Shown here in pieces: positions 37,606 through 60,634 of a stretch of 64,000 nt of DNA. The stretch lies in NCBI RefSeq assembly GCF_003334405.1, contig NZ_QOWM01000007.1; one strand, given 5' to 3'. A model generated the notes under the pieces. The model did not search any database and had not been told where the DNA came from. It was given only the letters and a program-made list of their open reading frames with translations. Source of the stretch: Escherichia coli. GTDB lineage: Bacteria; Pseudomonadota; Gammaproteobacteria; Enterobacterales; Enterobacteriaceae. The translations under genes were made by a program, and so were the position numbers. Numbering within the stretch: the stretch's first letter is position 1; every line of letters begins with the position of its first letter.

Positions 37606-38676
37606 GTGGAAAAGCCATTTCGAAAAATCCTGGTCATAAAGATGCGATATCACGGAGATATGTTATTAACTACTCCTGTAATCAGTACACTCAAGCAGAA
37701 TTATCCCGACGCAAAAATCGATATGCTGCTTTACCAGGATACAATTCCGATTTTATCTGAAAACCCAGAAATTAATGCACTCTATGGTATAAGCAATAAA
37801 GGTACGGGAACATTCGATAAAATTAAAAATGCACTTTCACTGATAAAAACTCTGCGTGCGAATAATTACGACCTGGTCATTAATCTTACGGATCAGTGGA
37901 TGGTGGCCCTGCTGGTACGTTGTTTACCTGCTCGTATGAAAATATCGCAGCTTTATGGTCATCGGCAGCATGGCATTTGGAAAAAAAGCTTTACACACTT
38001 AGCGCCTATACACGGTACACATATTGTTGAGCGTAATTTGTCGGTCCTTGAGCCATTAGGTATTACCGATTTTTATACTGAAACAACCATGAGTTACGCC
38101 GAGGATTGCTGGAAGAAAATGCGCCAGGAATTAGATGCACTGGGCGTGAAAGATCATTATGTCGTCATCCAGCCGACAGCCAGACAGATATTTAAGTGCT
38201 GGGACAACGATAAATTTTCTATGGTTATCGATGCGTTGCAACATCGTGGTTATCAGGTTGTGCTGACTTGTGGCCCTTCGGCAGATGATCTCGCTTGCGT
38301 AGATGAAATTGCACGAGGCTGCCAAACAAAACCTATTACCGGCCTTGCCGGTAAAACACGTTTTCCTGAACTGGGCGCATTAATTGATCATGCAGTGCTC
38401 TTTATTGGTGTGGATTCTGCGCCGGGGCATATTGCAGCGGCTGTGAAGACGCCAGTTATTAGCCTGTTTGGGGCCACTGATCATGTATTCTGGCGTCCAT
38501 GGACCGAGAATATTATTCAGTTCTGGGCGGGGAATTATCAAAAAATGCCTACCCGGCACGAACTTGACCGCAACAAAAAATATCTTTCTGTTATTCCAGC
38601 GGAAGATGTCATTGCCGCTACGGAAAAGCTGTTGCCAGAAGATGCACCTTCAGCTGACAGGAATGCGCAATTATGA
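37606..38676 (+). CDS. waaQ: LPS heptosyltransferase III (GT9)
   Basis: Matches WaaQ; ORF track starts at the GTG at 37606 (356 aa); the start recalled for the K-12 protein would be the ATG at 37642 (344 aa). Confidence 0.88.
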   Translation: MEKPFRKILVIKMRYHGDMLLTTPVISTLKQNYPDAKIDMLLYQDTIPILSENPEINALYGISNKGTGTFDKIKNALSLIKTLRANNYDLVINLTDQWMVALLVRCLPARMKISQLYGHRQHGIWKKSFTHLAPIHGTHIVERNLSVLEPLGITDFYTETTMSYAEDCWKKMRQELDALGVKDHYVVIQPTARQIFKCWDNDKFSMVIDALQHRGYQVVLTCGPSADDLACVDEIARGCQTKPITGLAGKTRFPELGALIDHAVLFIGVDSAPGHIAAAVKTPVISLFGATDHVFWRPWTENIIQFWAGNYQKMPTRHELDRNKKYLSVIPAEDVIAATEKLLPEDAPSADRNAQL

Positions 38677-39797
38677 TCGTGGCATTTTGCTTATATAAAT
38701 ATTTTCCATTTGGTGGGCTACAGCGTGACTTTATGCGTATTGCCTCAACAGTTGCCGCACGGGGCCACCATGTTCGGGTATATACACAGTCGTGGGAAGG
38801 CGATTGCCCGGAAGCATTTGAGCTTATTCGCGTACCGGTTAAATCCCATACTAACCATGGACGTAATGCAGAATATTATGCCTGGGTTCAAAACCATCTG
38901 AAGGCACATCCCGCTGATCGCGTTGTTGGCTTTAATAAGATGCCTGGGCTGGATGTTTATTTTGCCGCCGATGTCTGTTATGCCGAGAAAGTGGCGCAAG
39001 AAAAGGGATTTTTCTATCGTTTAACATCGCGCTATCGCCATTATGCTGCATTCGAGCGAGCGACTTTCGAACATGGTAAATCGACGAAACTTATGATGTT
39101 GACCGATAAGCAAATCGCCGATTTTCAGAAGCATTACCAAACTGAACCAGAACGTTTTCAAATTCTTCCCCCTGGTATCTATCCTGACAGAAAATACAAC
39201 GCGCAAATCCCAAACAGTCGTGAAATTTATCGCCAGAAAAATGGCATCACTGAACAACAAAACTTATTGCTGCAGGTTGGTTCAGATTTTGGTCGTAAAG
39301 GTGTGGATCGCTCAATTGAAGCTTTGGCATCGTTACCAGAATCGTTACGCCATAATACGTTGTTGTTTGTTGTTGGCCAGGATAAACCGCGTAAATTTGA
39401 AGTGCTGGCAGAAAAACTCGGTGTGCGTAGTAAAGTGCATTTCTTTTCCGGGCGGAATGATGTGTCTGAATTAATGGCAGCCGCTGATTTATTAATGCAT
39501 CCCGCTTATCAGGAGGCTGCAGGTATTGTTCTCCTTGAGGCAATTGCCGCGGGATTACCTGTGTTGACGACTGCGGTATGCGGATACGCACACTATATCA
39601 CAGATGCTAATTGTGGAACGGTCATCGCTGAACCTTTCTCCCAGGAACAATTAAATGACGTTTTACGTAAAGCGTTAACTCAATCTCCATTGCGCATGGC
39701 CTGGGCGGAGAATGCTCGGTATTACGCCGATACTCAGGATTTATACAGCCTGCCGGAGAAAGCGGCAGATATCATTACAGGTGGTTTAGATGGTTGA
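38673..39797 (+). CDS. waaG: LPS glucosyltransferase I (GT4)
   Basis: 374-aa GT4 ORF matching WaaG; overlaps the waaQ stop (ATGA). Confidence 0.95.
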
Positions 39798-40587
39798 ATT
39801 AGAAGAGCCACTTGCCACACTCTGGCGTGGTAAAGATGCCTTTGCAGAAGTTAAAAAACTGAATGGCGAGGTCTTCCGTGAACTGGAGACGCGTCGCACA
39901 TTACGCTTTGAACTGGCCGGCAAAAGTTATTTCCTCAAATGGCACAAAGGGACGACCCTAAAGGAGATTATAAAAAATCTGCTCTCATTGCGGATGCCCG
40001 TTTTAGGTGCAGACAGAGAGTGGCACGCTATTCATCGACTGCATGATGTCGGTGTTGATACGATGCACGGAATAGGATTTGGTGAAAAAGGGTTAAATCC
40101 ATTAACTCGCACATCATTTATTATTACCGAAGATCTCACTCCCACAATTAGCCTTGAAGATTATTGTGCAGATTGGGCGGTCAACCCGCCTGATGTACAT
40201 ATTAAGCGTATGCTGATCGCGCGTGTGGCAACCATGGTGCGCAAAATGCATGCAGCAGGGATTAATCACCGTGATTGTTATATCTGCCACTTTTTACTCC
40301 ATTTGCCATTTACTGGCCGGGAAGATGAATTAAAAATTTCGGTTATCGATCTGCACCGGGCACAGATACGTGCAAAAGTACCACGTCGTTGGCGGGATAA
40401 AGATTTGATTGGTTTATATTTCTCATCAATGAATATTGGTCTGACGCAGAGAGATATCTGGCGATTTATGAAGGTTTATTTTGGGATGCCTTTACGCGAT
40501 ATTTATAGACTTGAGATTGATTTACTTAAAAAGGCAAGGATTAAAGCAGGAAAAATAGAAGCAAGAACAATAAGAAAAAACTTGTAA
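39790..40587 (+). CDS. waaP: LPS core heptose(I) kinase
   Basis: 265-aa kinase-like ORF matching WaaP; overlaps the waaG 3' end. Confidence 0.95.
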
Positions 40588-40619
40588 ATAGTATTTTATT
40601 ACAAAAAGGGATTCTAAAA

Positions 40620-41600
40620 TTGTTGAAATATAGAAACTTCGTTGCTAAGAAGAAAAATTTATACCAAAACGAAGTGTCGTATGTTAAAAATTTACATATT
40701 GCACTATGCTTTGACCGTGAATTCATAATGCCAGCGGGTGTTGCATTATATTCAATTATATCCAACAATAGACATATTAACCTTCATTTTCACCTTCTTA
40801 TATCAGGCATAGAAGAAAAGGAGTGTTCAGCTTTTTACGAACTAGAAGGTCCTAATACATCAATATCTGTATATTATATAACTGATAAATTTGACATTAA
40901 TCCGGATACATTAGTTCTTGGTATTCCTTTATCAACATGTTTACGTTTTTTAATCCCAGAAGTTATTGATGATAAAATAAATAAGATACTTTATCTTGAC
41001 TGTGATGTCATATGTAATGGTCCTTTAGATGAACTGGTTGATTATAATTTAAATGCTGATATTGCATGTGTAATTCCAGATTCGCCAGAAATGCAAGAAC
41101 GTGTAAAAAAATTAGACTATGGCATTGAGTTTATTAATTATTTTAATGCCGGGGTTATGTTTATTAATACCAGCGAATGGAAAAAAAATAATATAACACA
41201 AAAAGCGTTAGAAATGATCAACAGTGGAAAAGTATATAGGTATGCAGATCAGGATGTGCTCAATATTTTACTTAATGGACGAGTGCATTACCTTGATAAG
41301 AAGTACAATAATAAGACAACATTGTCAGTACGATGTGATGAAGAACAAAAAAACTTGCCCAACACAATTATAATGCATTATGTTACCCAGAATAAACCAT
41401 GGTACAAAATATTTAGAGCACAAAATTTTGATCATTATTTTTCAAATTCTCCTTGGAAGAACCATAAAAGAAATCTAGCTCCATCATCAAGTGAGATTAG
41501 GTTAAAGTCTAAAGTTTTTTGGCTAGAAGGAAAATATTGTAAAGCCATTTCTTATTATTATAAGTATTTACTTGTTAAATTATTTGGCTTAAAGATTTAG
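40620..41600 (+). CDS. GT8-family LPS outer-core glycosyltransferase (paralog 1, at the position waaS occupies in K-12)
   Basis: 326-aa ORF with GT8 motifs seen directly: YLDCDVIC (DxD), YFNAGVMFIN, ADQDVLN, QNKPWYK; TTG start per ORF track, so the start is uncertain; N-terminal region is divergent (ALCFDREF where the other two have AYGxDxNY-type). Confidence 0.75.
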   Translation: MLKYRNFVAKKKNLYQNEVSYVKNLHIALCFDREFIMPAGVALYSIISNNRHINLHFHLLISGIEEKECSAFYELEGPNTSISVYYITDKFDINPDTLVLGIPLSTCLRFLIPEVIDDKINKILYLDCDVICNGPLDELVDYNLNADIACVIPDSPEMQERVKKLDYGIEFINYFNAGVMFINTSEWKKNNITQKALEMINSGKVYRYADQDVLNILLNGRVHYLDKKYNNKTTLSVRCDEEQKNLPNTIIMHYVTQNKPWYKIFRAQNFDHYFSNSPWKNHKRNLAPSSSEIRLKSKVFWLEGKYCKAISYYYKYLLVKLFGLKI

Positions 41601-41613
41601 CTGGAATGAAATT

Positions 41614-42693
41614 ATGAAAATAGCCTTTATTGGCGAAGCTGTTTCTGGATTTGGCGGCATGGAAACAGTCATTCGTGATGTTATTACTACCTTCAGGCAA
41701 CAACATATCCAAAGTGAAATTTTTTTCTTTTGTCGTAATGACAAAATGGATAAGGGATGGCTGGAAGGTATTAAGTACTCGTGTTCATTTTCCAATATTC
41801 GCTTAGGTTTTTTGCGTCGCGCGAAACATATTCATGCTTTAAGCAAATGGCTTCATGATTATCAGCCAGATGTTGTTATTTGTATTGACGTGATCTCGTG
41901 TTTGTATGCGGCCAAAGCTCGTAAAAAATCGGGGATTGATGTACCTGTATTTTCATGGCCGCATTTTTCTTTAGATCATAAAAAACATGCCGAATATATC
42001 ACCTGTGCCGACTATCATTTAGCCATCAGCTCTGGTATTAAACAGCAAATGATTAGCCGGGGTGTACCAGAATCGACAATAAACGTTATTTTTAATCCCG
42101 TTGAGGCGAAAAATTCAGTCATTCCTGCACCCGGGGAAGGCGAAACGGCAACATTCATTTATGTTGGGCGCATGAAATTTGAAGGCCAAAAGCGCGTAAA
42201 AGATCTGCTTGATGGCTTATCACAAGTGCAAGGTGACTGGAAACTTCATGTATTGGGAGATGGCTCCGATTTCGAAAAATGCCAGGCTTATGGTAGAGGA
42301 TTAAATATTGATGATCGAATTGTCTGGTATGGTTGGCAACAACATCCCTGGAAATTAGTTCAGCAAGATATTAAAAAAGTGAGTGCATTATTACTCACGT
42401 CATCTTTTGAAGGTTTCCCAATGACTCTACTTGAAGCCTTGTCGTGGGGGATCCCTTGTATCAGTGCAGATTGTGTCTCCGGGCCTGTTGATATCATTCA
42501 GCCTGATGTTAATGGTCATTTATATCAACCGGGGGATATGACCGGTTTTGTTGCTCTTCTCAATAAATACATAGCCGGTGAAATTCACATCGCACATGAA
42601 AAAATTCCGGCGTCGATCGATAAATTTTATCAACCGAAATATTACGACAGATTGCAAAAGATAATTATTTCTGTTATTTCCCGGAGGAAATAA
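41614..42693 (+). CDS. waaB: UDP-galactose:(glucosyl)LPS alpha-1,6-galactosyltransferase (GT4)
   Basis: 359-aa ORF starting MKIAFIGEAVSGFGGMETVI, collinear with recalled WaaB; GT4 EX7E-type C-terminal region. Confidence 0.85.
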   Translation: MKIAFIGEAVSGFGGMETVIRDVITTFRQQHIQSEIFFFCRNDKMDKGWLEGIKYSCSFSNIRLGFLRRAKHIHALSKWLHDYQPDVVICIDVISCLYAAKARKKSGIDVPVFSWPHFSLDHKKHAEYITCADYHLAISSGIKQQMISRGVPESTINVIFNPVEAKNSVIPAPGEGETATFIYVGRMKFEGQKRVKDLLDGLSQVQGDWKLHVLGDGSDFEKCQAYGRGLNIDDRIVWYGWQQHPWKLVQQDIKKVSALLLTSSFEGFPMTLLEALSWGIPCISADCVSGPVDIIQPDVNGHLYQPGDMTGFVALLNKYIAGEIHIAHEKIPASIDKFYQPKYYDRLQKIIISVISRRK

Positions 42694-43712
42694 TGCAGCA
42701 GGTTTTTTTCCAGGAGACTGAGTTTCTCAATTCGGTTATTGATTATAATCATAAAATAGAAGCAGAAAATCTTTGTCTGGATATTGCTTATGGGACTGAC
42801 AAAAATTTTCTTTTTGGATGCGGAATATCGATTGCTTCAATATTAAAATATAATGAAGGAAATCAATTATGCTTTCATATTTTTACTGATTATTTCGGTG
42901 ATGACGATCGCAAATATTTTGATGCCCTGGCCAGGCAATATAAAACAAGAATTAAGATATATTTAATTAATGGTGATCGACTCCGTTCATTACCCTGCAC
43001 CAAGAACTGGACTCATGCTATTTATTTTCGTTTTGTTATCGCCGATTACTTTTTTAATAAAGCACCCAAAGTTCTTTATCTGGATGCAGATATTATTTGT
43101 CAGGGAACTATAGAACCACTTATCAATTACACGTTTTCTGAACATACAGTCGCAATGGTTGTTACAGAAGGACAAAAAGACTGGTGGGCAAAACGTGCTC
43201 ATTCGTTAGGTGTTGCTGGGATTGCTAATGGTTACTTTAACTCCGGTTTTTTACTGATTAATACTAATCAATGGACGAATGAGCGGGTTTCTGCACGGGC
43301 CATTGCAATGTTAAGTGATCCAGAGATAGTCAAAAAAATAACACATCCTGATCAGGATGTATTAAATATGTTATTGGCAGACAAACTTGTTTATGCTGAT
43401 ATTAAATATAACACTCAGTTTAGTTTAAATTATCAACTAAAAGAAAGTTTTAAAAACCCAGTAACTAACGATACAGTTTTTATTCATTATATTGGTCCAA
43501 CTAAACCCTGGCATGACTGGGCCTGGGATTATCCAATATCACAAGCTTTTATGGCGGCAAAAAATGCTTCACCATGGAAGGATACTGCGTTATTGAAACC
43601 GGTTAATAGTAATCAATTAAGATACAGTGCTAAACATATGTTGAAAAAAAAGCAATATATCAAAGGATTTGACAACTATCTTTTGTATTTTATAAAAAAG
43701 CTAAAGCATTAA
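42693..43712 (+). CDS. waaO: GT8-family LPS outer-core glucosyltransferase (WaaO/WaaI-like, by motif and position)
   Basis: 339-aa ORF with motifs IAYGTDKNF, YLDADIIC, YFNSGFLLIN, PDQDVLN, GPTKPWH; start overlaps the waaB stop; the name is assigned by synteny only. Confidence 0.7.
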   Translation: MQQVFFQETEFLNSVIDYNHKIEAENLCLDIAYGTDKNFLFGCGISIASILKYNEGNQLCFHIFTDYFGDDDRKYFDALARQYKTRIKIYLINGDRLRSLPCTKNWTHAIYFRFVIADYFFNKAPKVLYLDADIICQGTIEPLINYTFSEHTVAMVVTEGQKDWWAKRAHSLGVAGIANGYFNSGFLLINTNQWTNERVSARAIAMLSDPEIVKKITHPDQDVLNMLLADKLVYADIKYNTQFSLNYQLKESFKNPVTNDTVFIHYIGPTKPWHDWAWDYPISQAFMAAKNASPWKDTALLKPVNSNQLRYSAKHMLKKKQYIKGFDNYLLYFIKKLKH

Positions 43713-43724
43713 TACTGATAATCT

Positions 43725-43848
43725 ATACTCTAAATAATTCGAGTTGCAGGACAAAAAGCCAGTGGCGTTTTGAGGAACGCTTGCGTTGGCCCTGAAATGC
43801 CGAGTAACTCGCCGATGCAGCACATGCAACTTGAAGTATAACGAGTAT
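43725..43848. repeat. ERIC/IRU-related imperfect palindromic element with divergent core
   Basis: Termini atactc...ttcgagttgca and tgcaacttgaagtataacgagtat are inverted complements and resemble the ends of the ERIC copy at 51001..51133; occupies the 163-bp gap between two GT8 genes. Confidence 0.45.
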
Positions 43849-43875
43849 ATAAAGTAATGATATAAGGATAGCCTT

Positions 43876-44892
43876 GTGAACTCATTTCCTGCCATAGAGA
43901 TAGATAAAGTTAAAGCCTGGGATTTTAGGCTTATTGATGAAAATACTGCTGAAAGTTTAAATGTTGCCTATGGTGTCGATTCCAATTATCTTGATGGTGT
44001 AGGTGTTTCCATTACTTCAATTGTCATTAATAATCGACATGTTAATCTTGATTTTTATATTATTGCTGATGTTTATAACGACGATTTCTTTCAAAAAGTT
44101 GAGAAACTTGCTGAGCAATACCAATTAAGAATCACACTTTATAGAATAAATACTGATAATCTTCAGTGCCTGCCTTGTACACAAGTCTGGTCAAGAGCAA
44201 TGTACTTCCGTTTATTTGCTTTTCAATTATTGGGAGTAACACTTAATCGTTTGCTTTATCTTGATGCCGATGTAGTTTGTAAGGGAAATATTAGTCAACT
44301 ATTGCATTTAGAGTTTAATGGAGCGGTGGCTGCAGTAGTCAGGGATGTAGACCCAATGCAGGAAAAGGCGGTAGTCAGATTATCTGATCCTGAACTTCGG
44401 GGGCAGTATTTTAATTCTGGTGTCGTTTACTTAGACCTAAAAAAATGGACAGAAGCAAAACTAACCGAAAAAGCACTGTCTATTCTTATGAGTAAAGATA
44501 GTATTTATAAGTATCCTGACCAGGACGTTATGAATGTCCTACTAAAAGGGATGACAATATTCCTGCCACGTGAGTTCAATACTATATATACAATAAAAAG
44601 TGAGTTAAAAGATAAAACGCATCAAAAATATAAAGAGTTGATAAAAGAGGATACTCTTCTTATTCATTATACTGGGGCCACCAAGCCGTGGCACAAATGG
44701 GCAATTTATCCATCGGTAAAATACTATAAAATAGCTTTAGAAAGATCCCCCTGGAAAGATGACTCACCACGAGATGCAAAATCAATTATTGAATTCAAAA
44801 AAAGATATAAACATCTGTTAGTGCAACATCATTATATCTCAGGACTCATTGCAGGAGTGTGTTATCTTTGCCGAAAATATTACCGTAAATAA
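43876..44892 (+). CDS. waaJ: GT8-family LPS outer-core glucosyltransferase (WaaR/WaaJ-like, by motif and position)
   Basis: 338-aa ORF, GTG start with AAGGA SD 7 nt upstream; motifs VAYGVDSNYL, YLDADVVC, YFNSGVVYLD, PDQDVMN, GATKPWHKW; the name is assigned by synteny only. Confidence 0.65.
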   Translation: MNSFPAIEIDKVKAWDFRLIDENTAESLNVAYGVDSNYLDGVGVSITSIVINNRHVNLDFYIIADVYNDDFFQKVEKLAEQYQLRITLYRINTDNLQCLPCTQVWSRAMYFRLFAFQLLGVTLNRLLYLDADVVCKGNISQLLHLEFNGAVAAVVRDVDPMQEKAVVRLSDPELRGQYFNSGVVYLDLKKWTEAKLTEKALSILMSKDSIYKYPDQDVMNVLLKGMTIFLPREFNTIYTIKSELKDKTHQKYKELIKEDTLLIHYTGATKPWHKWAIYPSVKYYKIALERSPWKDDSPRDAKSIIEFKKRYKHLLVQHHYISGLIAGVCYLCRKYYRK

Positions 44893-44909
44893 CATTTAAC
44901 TGGTTTAAC

Positions 44910-45608
44910 ATGATTCAGAAGAATAAAATCAAAGATTTAGTTGTTTTTACCGATGAAAATAACTCAAAGTATCTCAATGTATTAAATGACTTTCTTTCTT
45001 ATGATATTAATATCATCAAAGTTTTTCGTTCTATAGATGATACAAAAGTCATGCTTATTGATACCGATTACGGTAAATTGATACTTAAAGTTTTTTCGCC
45101 TAAAGTAAAACGCAACGAACGTTTCTTTAAATCTCTTTTAAAGGGAGATTATTATGAACGCCTTTTTGAGCATACTCAAAAAGTGCGTAACGAGGGGCTA
45201 CATTCTCTCAATGATTTTTATTTGTTGGCAGAACGGAAAACATTACGTTTTGTCCATACTTATATCATGCTTATCGAATATATCGATGGCGTAGAGTTGT
45301 GTGATATCCCCGATATTGATGAAACTTTAAAAAATAAAATTCAACAATCAATTCGTTCATTACACGAACACGGTATGGTATCTGGTGATCCTCACCGCGG
45401 TAATTTTATTATTGAAAATGGTGAAGTACGCATTATTGATCTTTCAGGAAAACGGGCATCTGCACAACGTAAAGCGAAAGATCGTATTGATTTAGAGCGA
45501 CATTATGGTATTAAGAATGAGGTTAAAGATCTCGGTTATTATCTTTTAGTTTATCGTAAAAAAATACGTAATCTTATGCGGCGTTTGAAAGGGAAGCCAG
45601 CACGATAA
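44910..45608 (+). CDS. waaY: LPS core heptose(II) kinase
   Basis: 232-aa kinase-like ORF (HGMVSGDPHRGNFII) matching WaaY. Confidence 0.88.
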   Translation: MIQKNKIKDLVVFTDENNSKYLNVLNDFLSYDINIIKVFRSIDDTKVMLIDTDYGKLILKVFSPKVKRNERFFKSLLKGDYYERLFEHTQKVRNEGLHSLNDFYLLAERKTLRFVHTYIMLIEYIDGVELCDIPDIDETLKNKIQQSIRSLHEHGMVSGDPHRGNFIIENGEVRIIDLSGKRASAQRKAKDRIDLERHYGIKNEVKDLGYYLLVYRKKIRNLMRRLKGKPAR

Positions 45609-45679
45609 AGTAAAAGTCTTACATTTAAACGTCTTCGTCAGGACATTTCTATGCGGAGTTCTTATTTCACAGGTTTATC

Positions 45680-46489
45680 ATGAAGAATATTAGATACATT
45701 GACAAAAAAGATGTTGAAAACCTGATAGAAAGTAAAACGTCTGATGATGTTATTATTTTTCTTTCCGGCCCCACATCGCAAAAAACACCATTGTCAGTGC
45801 TGCAGACAAGGGATGTTATTGCTGTCAATGGTTCTGCACAATATCTATTAAGTCATAATATTATTCCCTATATTTATGTACTTACCGATGTTCGCTTTTT
45901 ACATCAACGGCGTGATGATTTTTATAAATTTAGCCAGAGAAGTCGTTATACCATCGTAAATGTTGACGTTTATGAACATGCTTCTGAAGAAGATAAGCGG
46001 TACATCCTTCAAAACTGCCTGGTACTACGTTCATTTTACCGCAGAGAAAAAGGTGGATTGATCAAGAAGATCAAGTTTAATATTTTGAGCCGAATTCATA
46101 AAGAGCTCCTGATCTCTGTACCTTTTTCTAAAAAAGGTCGTCTGGTTGGCTTTTGCAAGGATATTAACCTCGGTTATTGTTCATGCCATACCGTTGCTTT
46201 TGCTGCAATCCAAATAGCCTATTCGCTGAAGTATGCTCGTATTATCTGTTCAGGCCTTGATTTAACGGGTAGCTGTTCGCGTTTCTATGATGAAGATAAG
46301 AATCCTATGCCCTCAGAGTTGACTCGGGATTTATTCAAAATTTTACCATTTTTCCGTTTTATGCGTGAAAATATAGAAGATATCAATATTTATAATTTAT
46401 CCGACGATACTGCAATTCAATATGATATTATTCCCTATATGAAAATATCCGAAATTGAAGAGCCGTGTGTTTATGAAAAAATAAGCTAA
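45680..46489 (+). CDS. waaZ: LPS core biosynthesis protein WaaZ (Kdo III-related)
   Basis: 269-aa ORF starting MKNIRYIDKKDVENL, collinear with recalled WaaZ. Confidence 0.8.
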   Translation: MKNIRYIDKKDVENLIESKTSDDVIIFLSGPTSQKTPLSVLQTRDVIAVNGSAQYLLSHNIIPYIYVLTDVRFLHQRRDDFYKFSQRSRYTIVNVDVYEHASEEDKRYILQNCLVLRSFYRREKGGLIKKIKFNILSRIHKELLISVPFSKKGRLVGFCKDINLGYCSCHTVAFAAIQIAYSLKYARIICSGLDLTGSCSRFYDEDKNPMPSELTRDLFKILPFFRFMRENIEDINIYNLSDDTAIQYDIIPYMKISEIEEPCVYEKIS

Positions 46490-46541
46490 TATTTTATATG
46501 TGTTTATTACGTGTTATAAATTATATTGGAGTTGGCTAATA

Positions 46542-47684
46542 ATGATTAAAACAATAATATTTACCGTCACACCAATATTTTCTATACCGCCAAAAGGAGC
46601 TGCAGCGGTTGAAACATGGATTTATCAGGTCGCAAAAAGACTTTCGATTCCAGTAACTATCGCCTGTATTCGAAACGAAGGTTACCCAACCTACACAAAA
46701 GTAAATGATCACTGTGATATTCACTACATTGGTTTTAGTCGAGTCTATAAACGACTTTTCCAAAAGTGGACTCGACTTGATCCTGTGCCATATTCTCAGC
46801 GTATTTTAAATACCCAACCTAAAAACACTGATCCGAAAGACTCTGTTATTGTTATCCACAATAGCATGAAGCTGTATAAACAGATTCGTAGCAGAAGCCC
46901 TCACGCGCAGCTAGTTATGCATCTTCATAATGCTTTCGAGCCAGGTGAGTTAGACAAAAATGCAAAGATAATTGTTCCTAGCCAGTTTCTTTTCGATTTC
47001 TATTCGGAAAAAATGCCTGATGCAAATATTGCTATTGTGCCTAATGGTTTTTGTTCTGAATCGTATGAACAAAATAATACTGAAGATTTGAGGCAGAAAC
47101 TGAACATTGATGCAAATGATACCGTGTTATTATTTGCAGGAAGGATATCACCAGATAAAGGTTGCCTGATGCTTATGGAGGCTTTTAATCAGCTGAATAA
47201 GATACAAGATAACCTCAAACTGGTGATTGTCGGAGATCCTTTTGCCAGTAAAAAAGGCGAAAAAGCTGAATATCAGAAAAAAGTTCTGGATGCAGCGAAA
47301 GCTATTGGAGCGCAATGCATTATGGCGGGTGGACAGCCTCCAGAGCAGATGCATAACTATTACCGTTTAGCAGATTTAGTTGTTGTTCCTTCTCAGGTAG
47401 AAGAAGCTTTTTGTATGGTAGCTGTTGAAGCGATGGCGGCAGGTAAACCAGTGCTTGCCAGTCAAAAAGGTGGAATTAGTGAGTTTGTTCTGGAAGGAAT
47501 TACAGGCTATCACCTTGCAGAGCCTATGACATCTGAAAGTATTCTCGCGGATATTAAGCGCGTTTTGGCGGATGCTGACAGAGCTCAAATTGCTAAAAAT
47601 GCCCGAAATTTTGTTTTCTCAAAATATAGCTGGGAACATGTTACTCAGCGTTTTGAAGCACAAATACAAGACTGGTTTGGTTAA
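46542..47684 (+). CDS. waaK: GT4-family LPS outer-core glycosyltransferase (WaaK-like, terminal GlcNAc transferase of R2/Salmonella cores)
   Basis: About 380-aa product from MIKTIIFTVTPIFSIPP (ORF track starts 14 codons earlier); GT4 motifs (EAFCMVAVEAMAAGKPV); not a GT9 heptosyltransferase like K-12 WaaU. Confidence 0.75.
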   Translation: MIKTIIFTVTPIFSIPPKGAAAVETWIYQVAKRLSIPVTIACIRNEGYPTYTKVNDHCDIHYIGFSRVYKRLFQKWTRLDPVPYSQRILNTQPKNTDPKDSVIVIHNSMKLYKQIRSRSPHAQLVMHLHNAFEPGELDKNAKIIVPSQFLFDFYSEKMPDANIAIVPNGFCSESYEQNNTEDLRQKLNIDANDTVLLFAGRISPDKGCLMLMEAFNQLNKIQDNLKLVIVGDPFASKKGEKAEYQKKVLDAAKAIGAQCIMAGGQPPEQMHNYYRLADLVVVPSQVEEAFCMVAVEAMAAGKPVLASQKGGISEFVLEGITGYHLAEPMTSESILADIKRVLADADRAQIAKNARNFVFSKYSWEHVTQRFEAQIQDWFG

Positions 47685-47702
47685 AAATTATTGGATTTGA
47701 AG

Positions 47703-47740
47703 AGCCTGCCTGAACTTAATGTCAGGCAGGCTTTTTTTTA
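47703..47740. terminator. bidirectional rho-independent terminator between waaK and waaL
   Basis: agcctgcctga-acttaatg-tcaggcaggct followed by T8; the waaL stop codon lies within the T-tract. Confidence 0.75.
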
Positions 47741-48955
47741 TTTATTCCGCATTGCTAACAGTAAACCAACAATCAAGCCAATTGGTTTGAGATCAACTTC
47801 CTCGAAGTTACCTCGAATAATATAAAAGCTTACAAGCGTTAAAAATAGTAGTAATTGACCATTATAAGGAGTGACGACAACTGTTTTAAACGTTGCATTA
47901 GCTGTCTCTTTGATAATAGAGCCATACAGATAAAGTAAAGCGAGTAGTCCAGCCAAACCCGCTGCAAACCAAATTGACAAAACAACGTTGTGTGGCCCAA
48001 TGGATTGCCTGAACTTCCATGACGGAAAATCTACAACACGCTTATTATATATTGCATGGTAAATATCATCGCCGTAGCCATATCCCTTAAGAGGATTTTC
48101 CATAATTAATGTCCACGCCGTACCTTGAGTACCATTGGTATAGCGATAAGAACTGTCGGTCTGTTGAAGTTTATAAATAAGCCTGTCTTTACCAGCATGA
48201 TCACCTTTATAGGTAAATACACCCACTGCGGCAACAGAAATAACGATGGAAGTCAGCATCAATAATTTCCACTGACGATTTAAGATTAACCATAGCAGAG
48301 TCACTATGAATACTGCCAGCCATGCACCACGAGACAGCGTTCCTAATAGCAGAAATAAGAAAACTGCACTAAAAATTACGAATGCTATTTTATAAGAGGT
48401 TTTCTTGATAAGCCAAAGGTTTAATAATGCTGGAAACAGAAACACCATTGAATCGGAAATACTACGGTGTTCATAGGTGGAAAATGGCATTATTCCTTTA
48501 TTATAATCCTGAATATAAAGAATAAGTTCAACAAGACAACGTAAGCCAAGTCCGGTAACTAATGAGTATAGTACAATTTTACCAATGCTTTCATTATCTT
48601 CATCTTTTAATAATGCAGGTATAAGTAAACTATAGGCCAAAAATCCTTTAAGTACCGTATTACTGAATTCTTTAAAACTGATTTTCAGATCAGGTGATAT
48701 AAAAGTAGCATATAAAAGAATGAGTGATAGTGCCAGGACACTATAAAAAAGATTATTTTTATAGAGTACTTTAAATGTTCCCGGAGCACGAGAAACTTGA
48801 TAGATTACCGTAATAATCATTAGTATAGATATGATGTGTTTATAACGGGTTATACCATCAAGGAAAAAGGTTGCAATAAAGAGGAATACCAACGCTTTAT
48901 TCCAGTACGGTTTCCACTTTTCTTTATTACGTAGCGCCAGCGAGGCTGTTAACAT
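47738..48955 (-). CDS. waaL: O-antigen ligase
   Basis: 405-aa polytopic membrane ORF at the conserved waaL position; AT-rich. Confidence 0.88.
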   Translation of the reverse strand: MLTASLALRNKEKWKPYWNKALVFLFIATFFLDGITRYKHIISILMIITVIYQVSRAPGTFKVLYKNNLFYSVLALSLILLYATFISPDLKISFKEFSNTVLKGFLAYSLLIPALLKDEDNESIGKIVLYSLVTGLGLRCLVELILYIQDYNKGIMPFSTYEHRSISDSMVFLFPALLNLWLIKKTSYKIAFVIFSAVFLFLLLGTLSRGAWLAVFIVTLLWLILNRQWKLLMLTSIVISVAAVGVFTYKGDHAGKDRLIYKLQQTDSSYRYTNGTQGTAWTLIMENPLKGYGYGDDIYHAIYNKRVVDFPSWKFRQSIGPHNVVLSIWFAAGLAGLLALLYLYGSIIKETANATFKTVVVTPYNGQLLLFLTLVSFYIIRGNFEEVDLKPIGLIVGLLLAMRNK

Positions 48956-48993: not shown

Positions 48994-49950
48994 TCAGGAA
49001 TTGATTTTATTAAATACCGTTTCTGCAGTCAGATGAGCAAGATCTTTATCTGGTGCCCTACAAACCACCTGATTCTTCCCATATCCGCCAATTAATCCCG
49101 GATCGGTTGGTCCATAAACCGTGATATTCGGTCGATCCAGTGCTGCAGTTAAATGACTTAACCCAGTGTCTACCGATACCACGAATTTCGCTCCGGCCAG
49201 CACACGGGCAACACCTTCCAGACTCATCTTCGGCAATACTTCAACATAAGCAAATCCTTCCGCCAGTCGTTTCGCCCGTTTTTCCTCATGCGGCGCACCC
49301 CACGGAAGTTTAATGCGAATCCCTGAATCTGCCAGTAAACCAATCAATTCTCGCCAGTGTTCTTCCGGCCAGTGTTTATCATCACGGGTCGTCGCATGAA
49401 GAAATACGGCATATTCGCCAGCATCTGTAGGCAGGTTCGTCAGAAAATGCTGTGCGATAGCATAATCGCCCTGGGTTTGCGGTTTGCTATAGCCCAGACT
49501 TTTGGCAAAAAGTTCGCGGATGCGTTCTACGGCGTGCTGCTGTTTTGCAATATGATGTTTACGATTGTAAAACAGGCTGGCTAAAGGTTCGCGAGCGGTT
49601 TGCCAGTCCATTCCATGCTTTACGCCATGCGCCAGACGCGTCACCAGCGCCGCGCTTTTTACCAGCCCCTGAGCATCGATAACTGCGTCATAGTTCTCTG
49701 CTTGTAGCGCTTCACGAAACGCTTTGCGTTCAGCTTTTATGGGGGCCGAGAACCAGGCTTTACGCCAGCGACGTATTGCCACAGGAATAACTCGCTCAAC
49801 GGCGGCGTGCCAGGAAGGAATCTGTGCGAACCCTTCTTCCACCACCCAGTCAAACTTAATCCCTGGGATTGCCTGCTGGGCATCAGTGAGTGCGGGCAAC
49901 GTATGGAGAACATCGCCCATCGACGATGTTTTAACGATCAAAACCCGCAT
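48994..49950 (-). CDS. waaC: LPS heptosyltransferase I (GT9)
   Basis: 318-aa ORF starting MRVLIVKTSSMGDVLHTLPALTDA; C-terminal approximately 25 residues differ from the K-12 sequence I recall. Confidence 0.93.
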   Translation of the reverse strand: MRVLIVKTSSMGDVLHTLPALTDAQQAIPGIKFDWVVEEGFAQIPSWHAAVERVIPVAIRRWRKAWFSAPIKAERKAFREALQAENYDAVIDAQGLVKSAALVTRLAHGVKHGMDWQTAREPLASLFYNRKHHIAKQQHAVERIRELFAKSLGYSKPQTQGDYAIAQHFLTNLPTDAGEYAVFLHATTRDDKHWPEEHWRELIGLLADSGIRIKLPWGAPHEEKRAKRLAEGFAYVEVLPKMSLEGVARVLAGAKFVVSVDTGLSHLTAALDRPNITVYGPTDPGLIGGYGKNQVVCRAPDKDLAHLTAETVFNKINS

Positions 49951-49953
49951 CCG

Positions 49954-51000
49954 TCAGGCTTCCTCTTGTAACAATAGAGAGTTGAGTTCTTCCAGCACGC
50001 GCTGGGGAGTAATGTCGATCAAGCTCTGGTGATAACCTTCTGCGGCGTCGCCTTTGCGTACTTTGTGATAGCCGGTAATCAGGCGGATCACGCGCGCTTT
50101 ATGGGATAGCGGCGGTGTGAAGTCCGGGCTACTCGGACCATACAGGGCAACCAGCGGACGATTGAGCGCCGCCGCAACGTGCATCAGGCCAGAATCGTTA
50201 GTGACAATGGCTTTACAGGCTGCAATCAGGATAACCGCTTGATCAAGCTGTGTTTCCCCCGCCAGGTTCCGGCACCATGCCTGCTGCTCGGTATTTAAAG
50301 CGGCAAGAATCTCATTGCCCGCTTCATGATCTTTCGCCGAGCCAAACAGAACCACTTGATAACCTTCATCAATCAGTTGCTTTGCCAGTTCCGCATAGTG
50401 GTAGTGTGGCCAGCGTTTTGCCGGACCAAACTCCGCACCCGGGCAAAAACCAATCATTGGACGTTCTGATGAAAGCGAAAATTGATTACAGGTATATGAT
50501 TTTTCACCTTCGCTCACCTGCAACTGCGGCCATAACAATGGCTGCGGCAGATCTTGTGCGGTACGCATAATACCTTTGTCATAGGCCAGCGCCACATAGC
50601 GTTCCACCATCAGCGGCCAGGCTTCTTTATCCAGCACACGCACATCGTTGAGTAAACCGTAGCGCATTTCGCCGCGCCAGCCGGTGCGATGAGGAATACC
50701 CGCGAAGAAAGGCACTAATGCGGATTTGAAGGAGTTGGGTAAAACGTAGGCGCGGTCGTAACGTTTTTCGCGCAGGCTATGACCCAGCTTGCGGCGTTCG
50801 CCAATTTCCAGCGCCCCGTGACCAAGCGGCATAGGAATGGCTTCGTTAACTTCCGGCATCCGCGATAATAATGGACGGCACCATGCCGGTGCCATCACGT
50901 CGATTATCGCCTGGGGATAGCGCGCCTGGAGCGTGCGATAGAGACTTTGCGACATCATCATGTCGCCAACCCATGACGGGCCGATCACCAATATTTTCAT
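49954..51000 (-). CDS. waaF: LPS heptosyltransferase II (GT9)
   Basis: 348-aa ORF starting MKILVIGPSWVGDMMMSQS. Confidence 0.95.
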   Translation of the reverse strand: MKILVIGPSWVGDMMMSQSLYRTLQARYPQAIIDVMAPAWCRPLLSRMPEVNEAIPMPLGHGALEIGERRKLGHSLREKRYDRAYVLPNSFKSALVPFFAGIPHRTGWRGEMRYGLLNDVRVLDKEAWPLMVERYVALAYDKGIMRTAQDLPQPLLWPQLQVSEGEKSYTCNQFSLSSERPMIGFCPGAEFGPAKRWPHYHYAELAKQLIDEGYQVVLFGSAKDHEAGNEILAALNTEQQAWCRNLAGETQLDQAVILIAACKAIVTNDSGLMHVAAALNRPLVALYGPSSPDFTPPLSHKARVIRLITGYHKVRKGDAAEGYHQSLIDITPQRVLEELNSLLLQEEA

Positions 51001-51133
51001 TCACTTCATCCTTCAAGCTGTCTCTGCGGCGGCTGCCTGCGTTCACTCCGGTCACTTACTTTTGTAAGCTCCCGGAGATTCACTTAGTTGCTGCCTTGAT
51101 ACCGCTCGAATGATTTTGTGAATTTACGTTGAT
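51001..51133. repeat. ERIC (enterobacterial repetitive intergenic consensus, IRU) element
   Basis: The minus strand carries GTGAATCTCCGGGAGCTTACAAAAGTAAGTGACCGGAGTGAACGC, matching the ERIC1R/ERIC2 primer-site core (GTGAATCCCCAGGAGCTTACAT / AAGTAAGTGACTGGGGTGAGCG) with 3 mismatches each; about 130 bp, imperfect palindrome; boundaries approximate. Confidence 0.8.
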
Positions 51134-52060
51134 GTCGCGATTCAGCCAGGCCATGTATTCCGTTACGCCTTCGGCAACGGTTTTGAACGGTTTGTCATAA
51201 CCCGCCGCGCGCAGATTCGTCAGATCTGCCTGCGTGAATGCCTGATAGCGGCCTTTCAGTTTATCCGGGAACGGAATGTATTCGATCTGGCCTTTCTTGT
51301 GATAAGCAAGCGTTGCATCGGCTACCGCCTGGAAGGATTCCGCACGACCAGTACCGAGGTTGAAGATGCCGGAAACGCCATTTTCCAGGAACCACAGGTT
51401 TACATCTGCCACGTCGCCAACATAGACGAAGTCGCGTTTAAAGTTCTCGCTACCTTCGAACAGCTTCGGTGATTCACCGTTATTAAGCTGGGTGTTGAGA
51501 TGGAAAGCGACGCTCGCCATGCTGCCTTTATGGCCTTCACGCGGTCCATAAACGTTGAAATAACGGAAGCCAACAATCTGTGAGTTTGCTTCCGGCAGAA
51601 TTTGACGAACATATTCATCAAACAGGAATTTCGAGTAACCGTAGACGTTCAACGGTTTTTCGTACTCGCGGGATTCAATAAAGTCGGAAGTGCGACCGCC
51701 GTAAGTGGCTGCGGATGAAGCGTACAGGAACGGGATTTCACGCTCCAGGCAGTAGTGCAGCAGCTCCTTGGAGTATTGATAGTTGTTATCCATCATATAC
51801 TTGCCGTCCCACTCGGTGGTGGAAGAGCACGCGCCTTCGTGGAAAATCGCTTCGACATCGCCGAACTCTTCGCCAGCCATAATCTGGATCAGGAAGTCTT
51901 CCTTATCCATATAGTCTGCGATATTCAGGTCCACCAGGTTCACAAACTTGGTGCCGTCTTTCAGGTTGTCCACCACCAGAATATCGGTGATGCCTTTGTC
52001 ATTCAGGGCTTTAACGATGTTGCTGCCGATAAAGCCCGCGCCGCCGGTAACGATGATCAT
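51080..52060 (-). CDS. hldD: ADP-L-glycero-D-manno-heptose 6-epimerase (C-terminally extended by read-through into ERIC)
   Basis: 326-aa ORF starting [19 protein letters not shown] (Rossmann fold); from memory the K-12 protein is 310 aa ending ...WLNRDA, here it continues ...[22 protein letters not shown]. Confidence 0.9.
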
Positions 52061-52273
52061 AACTGTAACCTTCGAATTGTGGAGTCAGAGACAATCTCAG
52101 ACACGAATACTTCTATCATATCACTACACGGCGCTGGCTACAGCCATTCACCGAAAGTGGTATGCCTGAGCGTGATTTATGCTTATTTTTTGACAAGTAC
52201 AAATGCTTCATCTCGTATCAACCTATGGCTTTCGGTAATATGTGCTGAAATTTGCCCAGTCTGGAGAATCGCG

Positions 52274-59565: not shown

Positions 59566-59809
59566 TGCGACAACCTCATACTCAAGAGTCAAAATTTGCG
59601 TAATTTTACTACAGCTGAATCGATAAAATAGCCTCTGAAGATCAAAATATACGACCGCTCGCGGCAAGCCGATGCCAGATTTGCGCTTTTTTTTCGTCGT
59701 GCCCCGCAAAATTGCATTCCAGTTAACGCGCTGGCTGTATTTGCCGCACCGCGCAGGTATACTCCTTTCCTGGTTTTTTTAATCACTACGTCGGGAGTTG
59801 TTACCCCCC

Positions 59810-60241
59810 ATGCAAGAAATTATGCAATTTGTTGGCCGTCATCCCATACTGAGTATCGCCTGGATCGCGTTACTGGTGGCGGTTCTTGTGACTACGTTTA
59901 AGAGCCTGACCTCGAAAGTGAAGGTGATTACTCGTGGTGAAGCTACGCGTCTGATCAACAAAGAAGACGCTGTGGTTGTGGATTTACGTCAGCGTGATGA
60001 CTTCCGTAAAGGCCATATCGCAGGTTCTATCAATCTGTTGCCGAGCGAAATCAAAGCCAACAATGTTGGTGAGCTTGAGAAGCACAAAGACAAACCGGTT
60101 ATCGTGGTAGACGGTTCTGGCATGCAGTGCCAGGAGCCTGCAAACGCGCTGACGAAAGCTGGTTTTGCGCAAGTATTCGTGCTGAAAGAGGGCGTTGCTG
60201 GCTGGGCTGGCGAAAACTTGCCTCTGGTGCGCGGCAAATAA
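59810..60241 (+). CDS. yibN: rhodanese-domain inner-membrane protein YibN
   Basis: 143-aa product from [12 protein letters not shown]; rhodanese fold. Confidence 0.88.
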
Positions 60242-60382
60242 TTTACCTGTCGTCTTTCATGATGCAGGCCGTTAGCTGCAATTAGGCCCCCAGCGACTTA
60301 TTGTTATAAGCTTCTGGGGACACTCCATTTTGCAGCCGCCCTGCAACATGAAATTTCAGGGTAAAAAAACAGGAGCTAAATT

Positions 60383-60634
60383 ATGGCCAATGTTGAAATC
60401 TATACCAAAGAAACCTGCCCGTATTGCCATCGTGCAAAAGCACTGCTGAGCAGCAAGGGCGTGAGTTTTCAGGAGTTGCCGATCGATGGCAATGCCGCCA
60501 AGCGTGAAGAGATGATCAAACGCAGCGGTCGCACCACGGTTCCCCAGATTTTTATTGACGCACAGCACATTGGCGGCTGTGATGACTTGTATGCATTGGA
60601 TGCACGTGGTGGACTGGATCCCCTGCTGAAATAA
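60383..60634 (+). CDS. grxC: glutaredoxin 3
   Basis: 83-aa ORF with CPYC active site. Confidence 0.96.

Follow-up and report, generated by a model that had tools for sequence, protein, structure and literature searches.

In a 64,000-nt stretch of Escherichia coli DNA (contig NZ_QOWM01000007.1 of assembly GCF_003334405.1; hereafter the window), the junction between the lipopolysaccharide (LPS) core genes hldD and waaF is occupied by a full-length repeat from the ERIC (enterobacterial repetitive intergenic consensus) family, also known as intergenic repeat unit (IRU) or RU-1. The repeat forms part of both genes, as it ends the reading frame of hldD and starts that of waaF. Comparison with other genera indicates that the element is neither specific to E. 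coli nor recent, but old and shared. The reading we favour, which we hold to be slightly short of an even chance, is that an old, fixed ERIC copy replaced the hldD/waaF junction and became part of both genes, its predicted hairpin masking the Shine-Dalgarno (SD) sequence and AUG of waaF until ribosomes translating hldD unmask them. The function of ERICs has been an open question since 1990-91.

Layout of the junction and identity of the element

The junction comprises the following features, all on the minus strand.

51124..50998: ERIC/IRU (RU-1) element in its full-length 127-nt register, transcribed in the orientation of the Wilson & Sharp consensus
52060..51080: hldD (rfaD) coding sequence, 326 aa; residues 1-309 identical to E. 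coli HldD in PDB 1EQ2
51136-51134: codon of HldD D309, the last residue common with the K-12 form
51133-51083: 17 new HldD codons, a 17-residue tail replacing Ala310 and the stop
51133-51125: 9-nt junction (ATCAACGTA) encoding I310-N311-V312, neither ERIC nor K-12-like
51104..51123: 5′ arm of the ERIC hairpin, inside hldD codons 313-320, with anti-SD (51108-51114) and anti-AUG (51122-51123) segments taken from the minimum-free-energy (MFE) pair list
51082-51080: hldD stop TGA, within the core motif GTGAAT (51083-51078)
51040..51083: 44-nt central core of the ERIC (ERIC1R/ERIC2 primer sites), which forms the apical hairpin and holds the hldD stop codon
51014-51009: waaF SD GAAGGA within the 3′ arm of the ERIC, exactly 8 nt ahead of the ATG and predicted to be base-paired
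51000..49954: waaF (rfaF) coding sequence, 348 aa; its ATG (51000-50998) is the last three positions of the ERIC register
49950..48994: waaC, downstream of waaF in the same transcription direction
48955..47738: waaL, downstream of waaC, whose allele seems to mark the ERIC-carrying haplotype

The minus strand reads across the junction as

AAT CGC GAC / ATC AAC GTA / AAT TCA CAA AAT CAT TCG AGC GGT ATC AAG GCA GCA ACT AAG TGA ATCTCCGGGAGCTTACAAAAGTAAGTGACCGGAGTGAACGCAGGCAGCCGCCGCAGAGACAGCTTGAAGGATGAAGTGA ATG AAA

and the ERIC thus overlaps the end of the hldD coding sequence by 45 nt (14 of the 17 extra codons and the new stop, the 9-nt junction encoding the other three) and the start of waaF by 3 nt. 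In the empty allele, CGCGAC-GCA-TAA-GAGCTCTGC-ATG, HldD is 310 aa long; the filled allele has 133 nt in exchange for 15 nt (GCATAAGAGCTCTGC), and the distance from the hldD stop to the waaF start is 79 nt instead of 9 nt. The original prediction, made from the sequence, had already described an ERIC element that rewrites the HldD C-terminus to 326 aa, against a length of 310 aa rightly given for K-12, through a frame running on for 17 codons to the TGA in GTGAAT, and that carries the waaF SD 8 nt before the ATG. These points agree with what we find, including the PGAP annotation of a 981-nt rfaD (WP_000587766.1), with the refinements that not all 17 codons belong to the ERIC and that the waaF ATG also lies in its register. 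The predicted length of about 130 bp was roughly right and can be narrowed to 127 nt for the ERIC proper, the rest of the replacement being the 9-nt junction.

Membership of the element in the ERIC family is supported by several comparisons. Against the consensus, i.e., the E. coli 127-nt Wilson & Sharp sequence as quoted in Delihas 2007 (PMC2759123, Table 1a), 97 of 125 positions match in a gapless alignment (77.6%), which sets the register at 51124..50998. The primer core, assembled from ERIC1R and ERIC2 and itself a substring of the published consensus, is matched at 38 of 44 positions; an exact-pattern search of the window for the consensus core with up to 3 mismatches gave no match because the hldD-waaF copy has 6. 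The K-12 copy between hsdM and hsdR is 82.3% identical over the full length (blastn, E = 1e-26), nhmmer matches the element to ERIC at E = 1.4e-38, and it aligns end to end with seven E. coli copies, located at hsdM-hsdR (K-12 and BL21), queA-acpH, puuR-puuC, ybhJ-ybhI, pmbA-cybC and rhlB-gppA. Across all 5,426 complete E. coli genomes, a blastn search with a 129-nt element query found 53,544 ERIC-like places, with a median of 11 per genome. Plasmids carry 36 of the 53,544 places, e.g., the 157,885-bp record of strain HCM-22C-2. In its size (~127 bp), consensus likeness and central core, its long hairpin with compensatory changes, and its dispersal in multiple copies, the element has the features that define the ERIC/IRU/RU-1 family. 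Rfam contains no ERIC family model of its own, and the single match that it gave was the model V_AS5 (Vibrio antisense RNA AS5), aligned over model positions 1-129 with window 51002-51125 (minus strand) at 29.7 bits (E = 0.0028). Membership in V_AS5 was rejected, as this score is below the 96-bit gathering threshold; the match suggests that V_AS5 was apparently built on, or overlaps, an ERIC-like repeat.

The copy also departs from its family in several respects. Its termini are AATTCAC...GTGAATG, as compared with TATAC...GTATA in the consensus, and its right arm, which defines a sub-type, reads GAAGGATGAAGTG as compared with GAAATATGACGGG. The terminal TA, the TA target-site duplication and the restorable empty site of a miniature inverted-repeat transposable element are all missing at hldD-waaF, and so are the independent insertions and strain-specific sites that accompany recent mobility. 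An insertion of the simple, TA-targeted kind into the empty site of E. coli was rejected, since no clean TA duplication can be reconstructed from the replacement of 15 nt by 133 nt; the nine junction nucleotides (51133-51125) have no identifiable source. Finally, the ERIC places inspected sit between genes, with the exception of the hldD-waaF copy, which overlaps the ends of two coding sequences.

Distribution of the element and constraint on its sequence

Presence or absence of the element is polymorphic in E. coli, as the original prediction had expected an alignment to reveal. Neither outcome that it named as a refutation was observed, since K-12 and most E. coli do not share the element and its 326-aa HldD, and the region does align to the ERIC consensus. 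The ERIC junction, scored at ≥80% coverage of a 290-nt junction-centred query, is carried by 480 of the 5,426 genomes (~9%), all at ≥99% identity and isolated from many hosts. In the other 4,944 matching genomes the query aligns in two pieces, with 118 nt skipped. The empty junction was read in K-12, AST20, WP4-W18, an E2348/69 derivative, E. albertii and the GTDB representative of E. coli. About 9% of sequenced E. coli hence make a 326-aa HldD, which matters wherever the 310-aa K-12 protein serves as the reference and for primers and annotation across the junction. The window waaL allele is found in 501 of the 5,426 genomes, 481 of them at ≥99% identity. FORC 064, with a 100% identical waaL, has the 326-aa rfaD and the 79-nt gap, and ECNB21-M121, with a 98% identical waaL, has the empty junction. 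The counts of 480 and 481, together with these two genomes, suggest that the ERIC marks one clade of one waaL type; on the same basis, near-isogenic empty alleles would seem to occur in nature. The hldD and waaF alleles of the ERIC-bearing haplotype are 3-7% diverged from those of other E. coli.

When one genome per species was scanned, 80 hldD loci were obtained, 79 of them with a readable hldD stop. Three non-Escherichia genomes have the same element in the same register, D309 being followed by 9 nt and the ERIC, and the end of the ERIC being fused to the waaF ATG as GT(G/A)AATG.

Superficieibacter electus: HldD of 326 aa, with a 17-residue tail
Pseudocitrobacter faecalis: HldD of 316 aa, with the tail SDTHSQN (7 aa)
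Citrobacter sp. Cu233: HldD of 313 aa, with the tail NATN (4 aa) and two extra insertions of ~70 nt nested in the ERIC

These orthologous ERICs are 93.5-94.4% identical to the window copy over the 124 nt compared. The 12 nt made up of the 9-nt junction, whose length is equal in all orthologues, and the first 3 ERIC nt are identical at only 5-6 positions (42-50%; Fisher p = 1.5e-5 to 2.5e-4 vs the ERIC), and the third codon positions of hldD and waaF are 53-68% identical between the window and those genera. Judged by these figures, the whole ERIC element, and not the ribosome-binding site (RBS) alone, appears to be under purifying selection. The simplest reading is one old insertion, in which selection would have kept the ERIC part nearly unchanged as the junction and the tail frame drifted; a single old event is indicated because all 480 copies belong to one haplotype, the register is the same in three other genera and the junction is saturated. 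The cross-genus comparison (94% identity vs ~50% in the adjoining nucleotides) offers quantitative evidence for selection on an entire individual ERIC copy.

Selection at the protein level on the HldD tail is unsupported, as translation stops after 4 and 7 residues in two of the genera and the tail of the third has an H-to-L change. Searched against a protein database, the tail matched nothing but short partial HldD fragments, which inform on tail variants and not on prevalence; two further 17-residue variants were found among them, one from an Enterobacter metagenome-assembled genome and one other. In Cu233, the two insertions (~2485-2555 and ~2590-2665 of locus L017) lie one in each arm, each starting with a similar small palindrome (CAAATTCGTCTGGAACGAATTTGAAC, CAAATCTGTCTGGAACAGATTTGAAC), and the element is still predicted to fold as one long rod (-114.9 kcal/mol).

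A recent horizontal import from another genus was rejected. The genes flanking the element in the window are E. coli-type (95-99% identical to other E. coli, 80-87% to those genera), and differences have saturated the junction but not the ERIC; had the transfer been recent, the junction would have come along unchanged. Either a long-lived polymorphism or an old introgression later trimmed by recombination could account for the place of the element in a minority haplotype of E. coli. More generally, we regard it as very improbable that the element owes its presence to a role at the DNA level, i.e., as a cruciform, protein-binding or recombination site at the edge of the LPS core cassette, or to a recombination artefact such as a recent import. 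The divergence of the hldD and waaF alleles of the element haplotype, the near coincidence of the carrier count with that of one waaL allele and the existence of an empty variant at 98% waaL identity would suit such an origin. The flanks, however, are E. coli-type right up to the element, the import is contradicted by the saturated junction, the compensatory changes described below keep G-U-tolerant pairs, which are typical of RNA structure, and no DNA-binding motif is known for ERIC (PMC2229807).

The same data bear on whether the ERIC does anything at all at this locus. It could be a tolerated passenger that by chance restores a workable SD, an ATG and an in-frame stop close by, that leaves HldD and WaaF essentially unchanged and that is linked to a successful waa haplotype. 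The unconserved tail length (17, 17, 7 and 4 aa across the four orthologues), the identity of HldD residues 1-309 with the K-12 enzyme, and the use of the same ERIC-borne RBS by gppA and acpH, where no upstream open reading frame (ORF) enters the element, all speak for it; the 480 carriers against 481 genomes with waaL at ≥99% identity, one of which was checked and has the element, also fit hitch-hiking. A neutral passenger should nevertheless have decayed as the junction (42-50%) or synonymous sites (53-68%) did, whereas the 124-nt element did not; the central hairpin is conserved as well, though it has neither a coding nor an RBS role, and the hairpin pairs covary. On balance, we think this explanation unlikely, albeit one to be taken seriously.

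Several further features of the locus lie outside the junction. In the part of the window next to the hldD start (~52061-52270), kbl lies directly upstream of hldD and divergent from it, as in L73, AST20, FORC 064 and others; K-12, compared over positions 1-837 of its locus, has yibB (htrL) there. This looks like a second presence/absence difference at the locus that is not linked to the ERIC. The waa cluster (window 37606-48955) consists of WaaQ, a GT4 at the WaaG position, WaaP, an extra GT8, WaaB, a WaaI-like protein, a second GT8, WaaY, WaaZ, a WaaK-like GlcNAc transferase and WaaL, with NCBIfam matches to RfaQ, RfaP, 1,6-galactosyltransferase (WaaB), 3-alpha-galactosyltransferase (WaaI), RfaY, WaaZ, RfaL, the GT8s and the WaaK-like protein. 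We take this gene content to be that of an R2/Salmonella-like core, a name we use provisionally. Within the waaQ operon, a second ERIC-family element (window 43723-43849, plus strand; nhmmer E = 4.3e-5) sits in the 163-nt gap that separates the WaaI-like gene (42693-43712) from the following GT8 gene (43876-44892); its termini are canonical (TATACTCTAAATAATTCGAGTTGCAGG ... CATGCAACTTGAAGTATAACGAGTATA), but its central part is unlike the ERIC core. A degenerate ERIC-like element (window 60245-60354, minus strand; nhmmer E = 7.8e-6; core GAGTGTCCCCAGAAGCTTATAACAATAAGTCGCTGGGGGC) is found just upstream of secB and gpsA, between a 147-aa ORF without an NCBIfam match (59798-60241) and an 83-aa ORF (60383-60634), which are presumably yibN and grxC given the K-12 gene order.

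Predicted hairpin and candidate coupling of waaF to hldD

Folding of the ERIC RNA, which had been proposed as a check on the original prediction, gives a predicted free energy of -51.7 kcal/mol (z = -5.62), and none of 200 shuffled sequences folds as well. Compensatory double changes occur at 16 of 39 consensus hairpin pairs across 10 ERIC copies, and the core stem is kept by paired changes from C-G to U-A and from A-U to G-C. In both the MFE and the ensemble folds, the predicted partner of the SD (51014-51009) is 51108-51114, and that of the AU in the waaF AUG (51000-50999) is 51122-51123. The predicted unpaired probability is about 0 over these pairs; within the SD it is 0.00-0.02 at four of the six nucleotides, the other two being at 0.27 and 1.00 (a bulged G), and its mean over the SD-to-AUG stretch is 0.31 in the ERIC allele vs 0.55 at the K-12 junction. 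The hldD stop codon is located at the base of the apical hairpin. When a 30-nt ribosome footprint is forced on the 5′ arm in a constrained fold, both SD and AUG become free.

These predictions fit the configuration known from RBS unmasking, in which the SD and AUG of the downstream gene, here waaF, pair with sequence within the upstream ORF; the three orthologues conform to it as well. In a message free of ribosomes, the ERIC hairpin would mask the site of waaF initiation; a ribosome translating the last hldD codons would melt the 5′ arm and briefly expose the SD and AUG, such that waaF translation would stay coupled to hldD translation despite a spacing of 79 rather than 9 nt. The coupling that K-12 would achieve through its 9-nt stop-to-start distance would thus be preserved in the ERIC allele. 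The peptide tail would be a tolerated by-product, selection acting on the RNA element and the initiation site that it contains. Regardless of tail length, the anti-SD and anti-AUG are covered in all four orthologues, by the hldD ORF itself or by the footprint of the ribosome that terminates on it, and the pairing is predicted alike. As a deep-rough phenotype results from loss of waaF, the viability of 480 carriers suggests that waaF is adequately expressed from its ERIC-borne RBS. The original prediction spoke of an essential operon, a term that is too loose, since loss of hldD or waaF is viable in K-12: the deep-rough mutants survive but are temperature- and detergent-sensitive. Its suggestion that the element could influence mRNA stability or translational coupling has support of a computational kind.

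Two other E. coli copies extend the picture of the RBS. At rhlB-gppA of E. coli O157:H7 (L009 401-521), the gppA ATG occupies the same last three ERIC positions (GAAGGA, 8 nt, ATG), and at queA-acpH (L005 401-529) the acpH ATG begins at the last ERIC base; the SD is predicted to be paired in the ERIC hairpin at both loci. The right arm of this ERIC sub-type thus seems to serve repeatedly as an RBS (waaF, gppA and acpH). These loci also provide the main evidence against coupling, because no upstream ORF enters the 5′ arm at either of them (rhlB stops ~15 nt before the element, and queA is divergent), and a masked ERIC RBS may therefore work uncoupled. Further points weigh on the same side. For a ribosome placed on the stop codon of the E. 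coli allele, re-formation of the basal stem behind it is predicted, and any unmasking would therefore be transient; masking and unmasking are both thermodynamic predictions; and conservation of the whole element could reflect another role at the RNA or DNA level. A stronger version of the coupling proposal is a possibility that we advance with less conviction: the ERIC would have been domesticated as an intercistronic module (stop, hairpin, SD and start) and kept under purifying selection since before the split of Escherichia, Citrobacter, Pseudocitrobacter and Superficieibacter, enforcing hldD-waaF coupling. If so, gppA and acpH would point to a general, overlooked role of this ERIC sub-type as a portable structured translation-initiation region.

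Alternatively, mRNA processing or stability could be affected by the hairpin, or by an RNase E or RNase III site in or near it, giving the hldD and waaF-waaC-waaL segments differing steady-state levels, a role of the kind put forward for Yersinia ERICs. There, copies at the 3′ ends of genes are reported to lower upstream transcripts through an RNase E site unmasked by ribosomes (PMC2229807, PMC3184786, PMC10969869); the hldD ORF reads into the element, so that ribosomes must disturb its folding, and the whole element is conserved. The published stop-overlapping C-terminal fusions, however, are in the opposite orientation (Delihas 2007, PMC2759123), which suggests that the hldD-waaF copy is probably in the other orientation than the RNase E-regulated Yersinia ERICs, and that the hldD-waaF transcript would carry not the U-rich, RNase E-prone arm but its A-rich complement (CAAAAUCAUUC). 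We consider this alternative rather improbable. An intrinsic terminator or internal promoter was also rejected: no terminator-like or sigma-70-like site was found on either strand of the element, which fits co-transcription of its neighbours.

Two other structures were noted around the ERIC. A 16-bp complementarity between window 51137-51155 and 50972-50988 (minus strand) joins hldD codons 302-308 (YMAWLNR) and waaF codons 5-10 (VIGPSW) in a native stem stacked beneath the ERIC hairpin, which it would extend; in K-12, too, the stem surrounds the stop/start junction. Pairing in it amounts to 80% across 64 distinct species sequences, vs 20-58% in shifted registers. Selection for this pairing is unsupported, as synonymous sites vary freely without compensation, and the pairing may reflect conserved coding sequence only. 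A terminator-like hairpin inside the waaF coding sequence (window 50874-50896, minus strand; 10 pairs followed by CATTATTATC) is probably due to chance, with one found vs 0.4 expected in shuffles.

The locus is an unusually clean test system, with an element fused to both neighbours and with alleles of one waaL type that occur naturally with and without the ERIC, e.g., in FORC 064 and ECNB21-M121. The readout is easy, as WaaF-dependent heptosylation is reflected in LPS core size, novobiocin and SDS sensitivity and growth at high temperature. A specialist would not be surprised by the element, yet its location makes a good experimental handle on what ERICs do.

Comparison with known systems

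The hldD-waaF element resembles the ERIC/IRU/RU-1 repeats (Sharples & Lloyd 1990; Hulton et al. 1991; Wilson & Sharp 2006) in its 127 nt, gapless consensus alignment, covarying hairpin, dispersal and location in a transcription unit. It differs from the usual copies in not being intergenic, in its termini, in lacking a clean TA duplication and in its right-arm sub-type. Polymorphism of ERICs between E. coli strains is itself documented, with 14 extra loci in non-K-12 strains (2024 review). The copies at rhlB-gppA and queA-acpH share with it the orientation to the downstream gene and an ERIC-borne, paired SD, but it is only at hldD that the upstream frame crosses the entire 5′ arm and ends within the core.

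C-terminal fusions to RU-1 have been described for the amidase ECA3499 and the threonine dehydrogenase ECA0168 of Pectobacterium and for YPO3245 of Y. pestis (Delihas 2007, PMC2759123). As in HldD, a conserved enzyme has lost its normal stop and gained a short C-terminal extension outside the conserved domain, with the rest of the repeat downstream. Those fusions, however, read the reverse-complement strand (peptide YTRHISSC...), whereas HldD reads the forward strand over 14 residues; rfaD/hldD is not among the cases of PMC2759123, and the hldD-waaF element also provides the RBS and start of the next gene. The effect of Yersinia ERICs on decay is ascribed to a ribosome-dependent RNase E site in the terminal inverted repeat and is strongly orientation-dependent (De Gregorio 2005, as cited in PMC2229807, PMC3184786 and PMC10969869). 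Like the Yersinia operon ERICs, the hldD-waaF copy is co-transcribed within an operon and overlaps or abuts a stop codon, and ribosomes would interfere with its hairpin. The proposed output in Yersinia is RNase E cleavage and lower upstream mRNA, whereas the copy at hldD-waaF, known from its sequence, is probably in the opposite orientation, judging from the fusions in Delihas 2007.

A literature search for an ERIC at hldD/rfaD-waaF found no relevant paper in the collection searched. The strains compared by Wilson & Sharp reportedly did not include one with the core type of the window. To our knowledge, a single element giving a stop, an SD and a start, orthology of an ERIC across genera with measurable constraint, and an ERIC-borne RBS that recurs at gppA and acpH have not been described.

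Coupling by RBS unmasking is known from phage MS2, between coat and replicase or lysis, and from E. coli infC-rpmI-rplT. In these systems, as predicted at hldD-waaF, a segment of the upstream ORF pairs with the SD and AUG of the downstream gene, and upstream translation opens the pairing; at hldD-waaF the pairing partner comes from the inverted repeat of a dispersed element, and the coupling is a prediction. ERICs, their hairpins, their polymorphism between strains and their C-terminal fusions to enzymes are already established, and what is new here is the locus of a long-known element.

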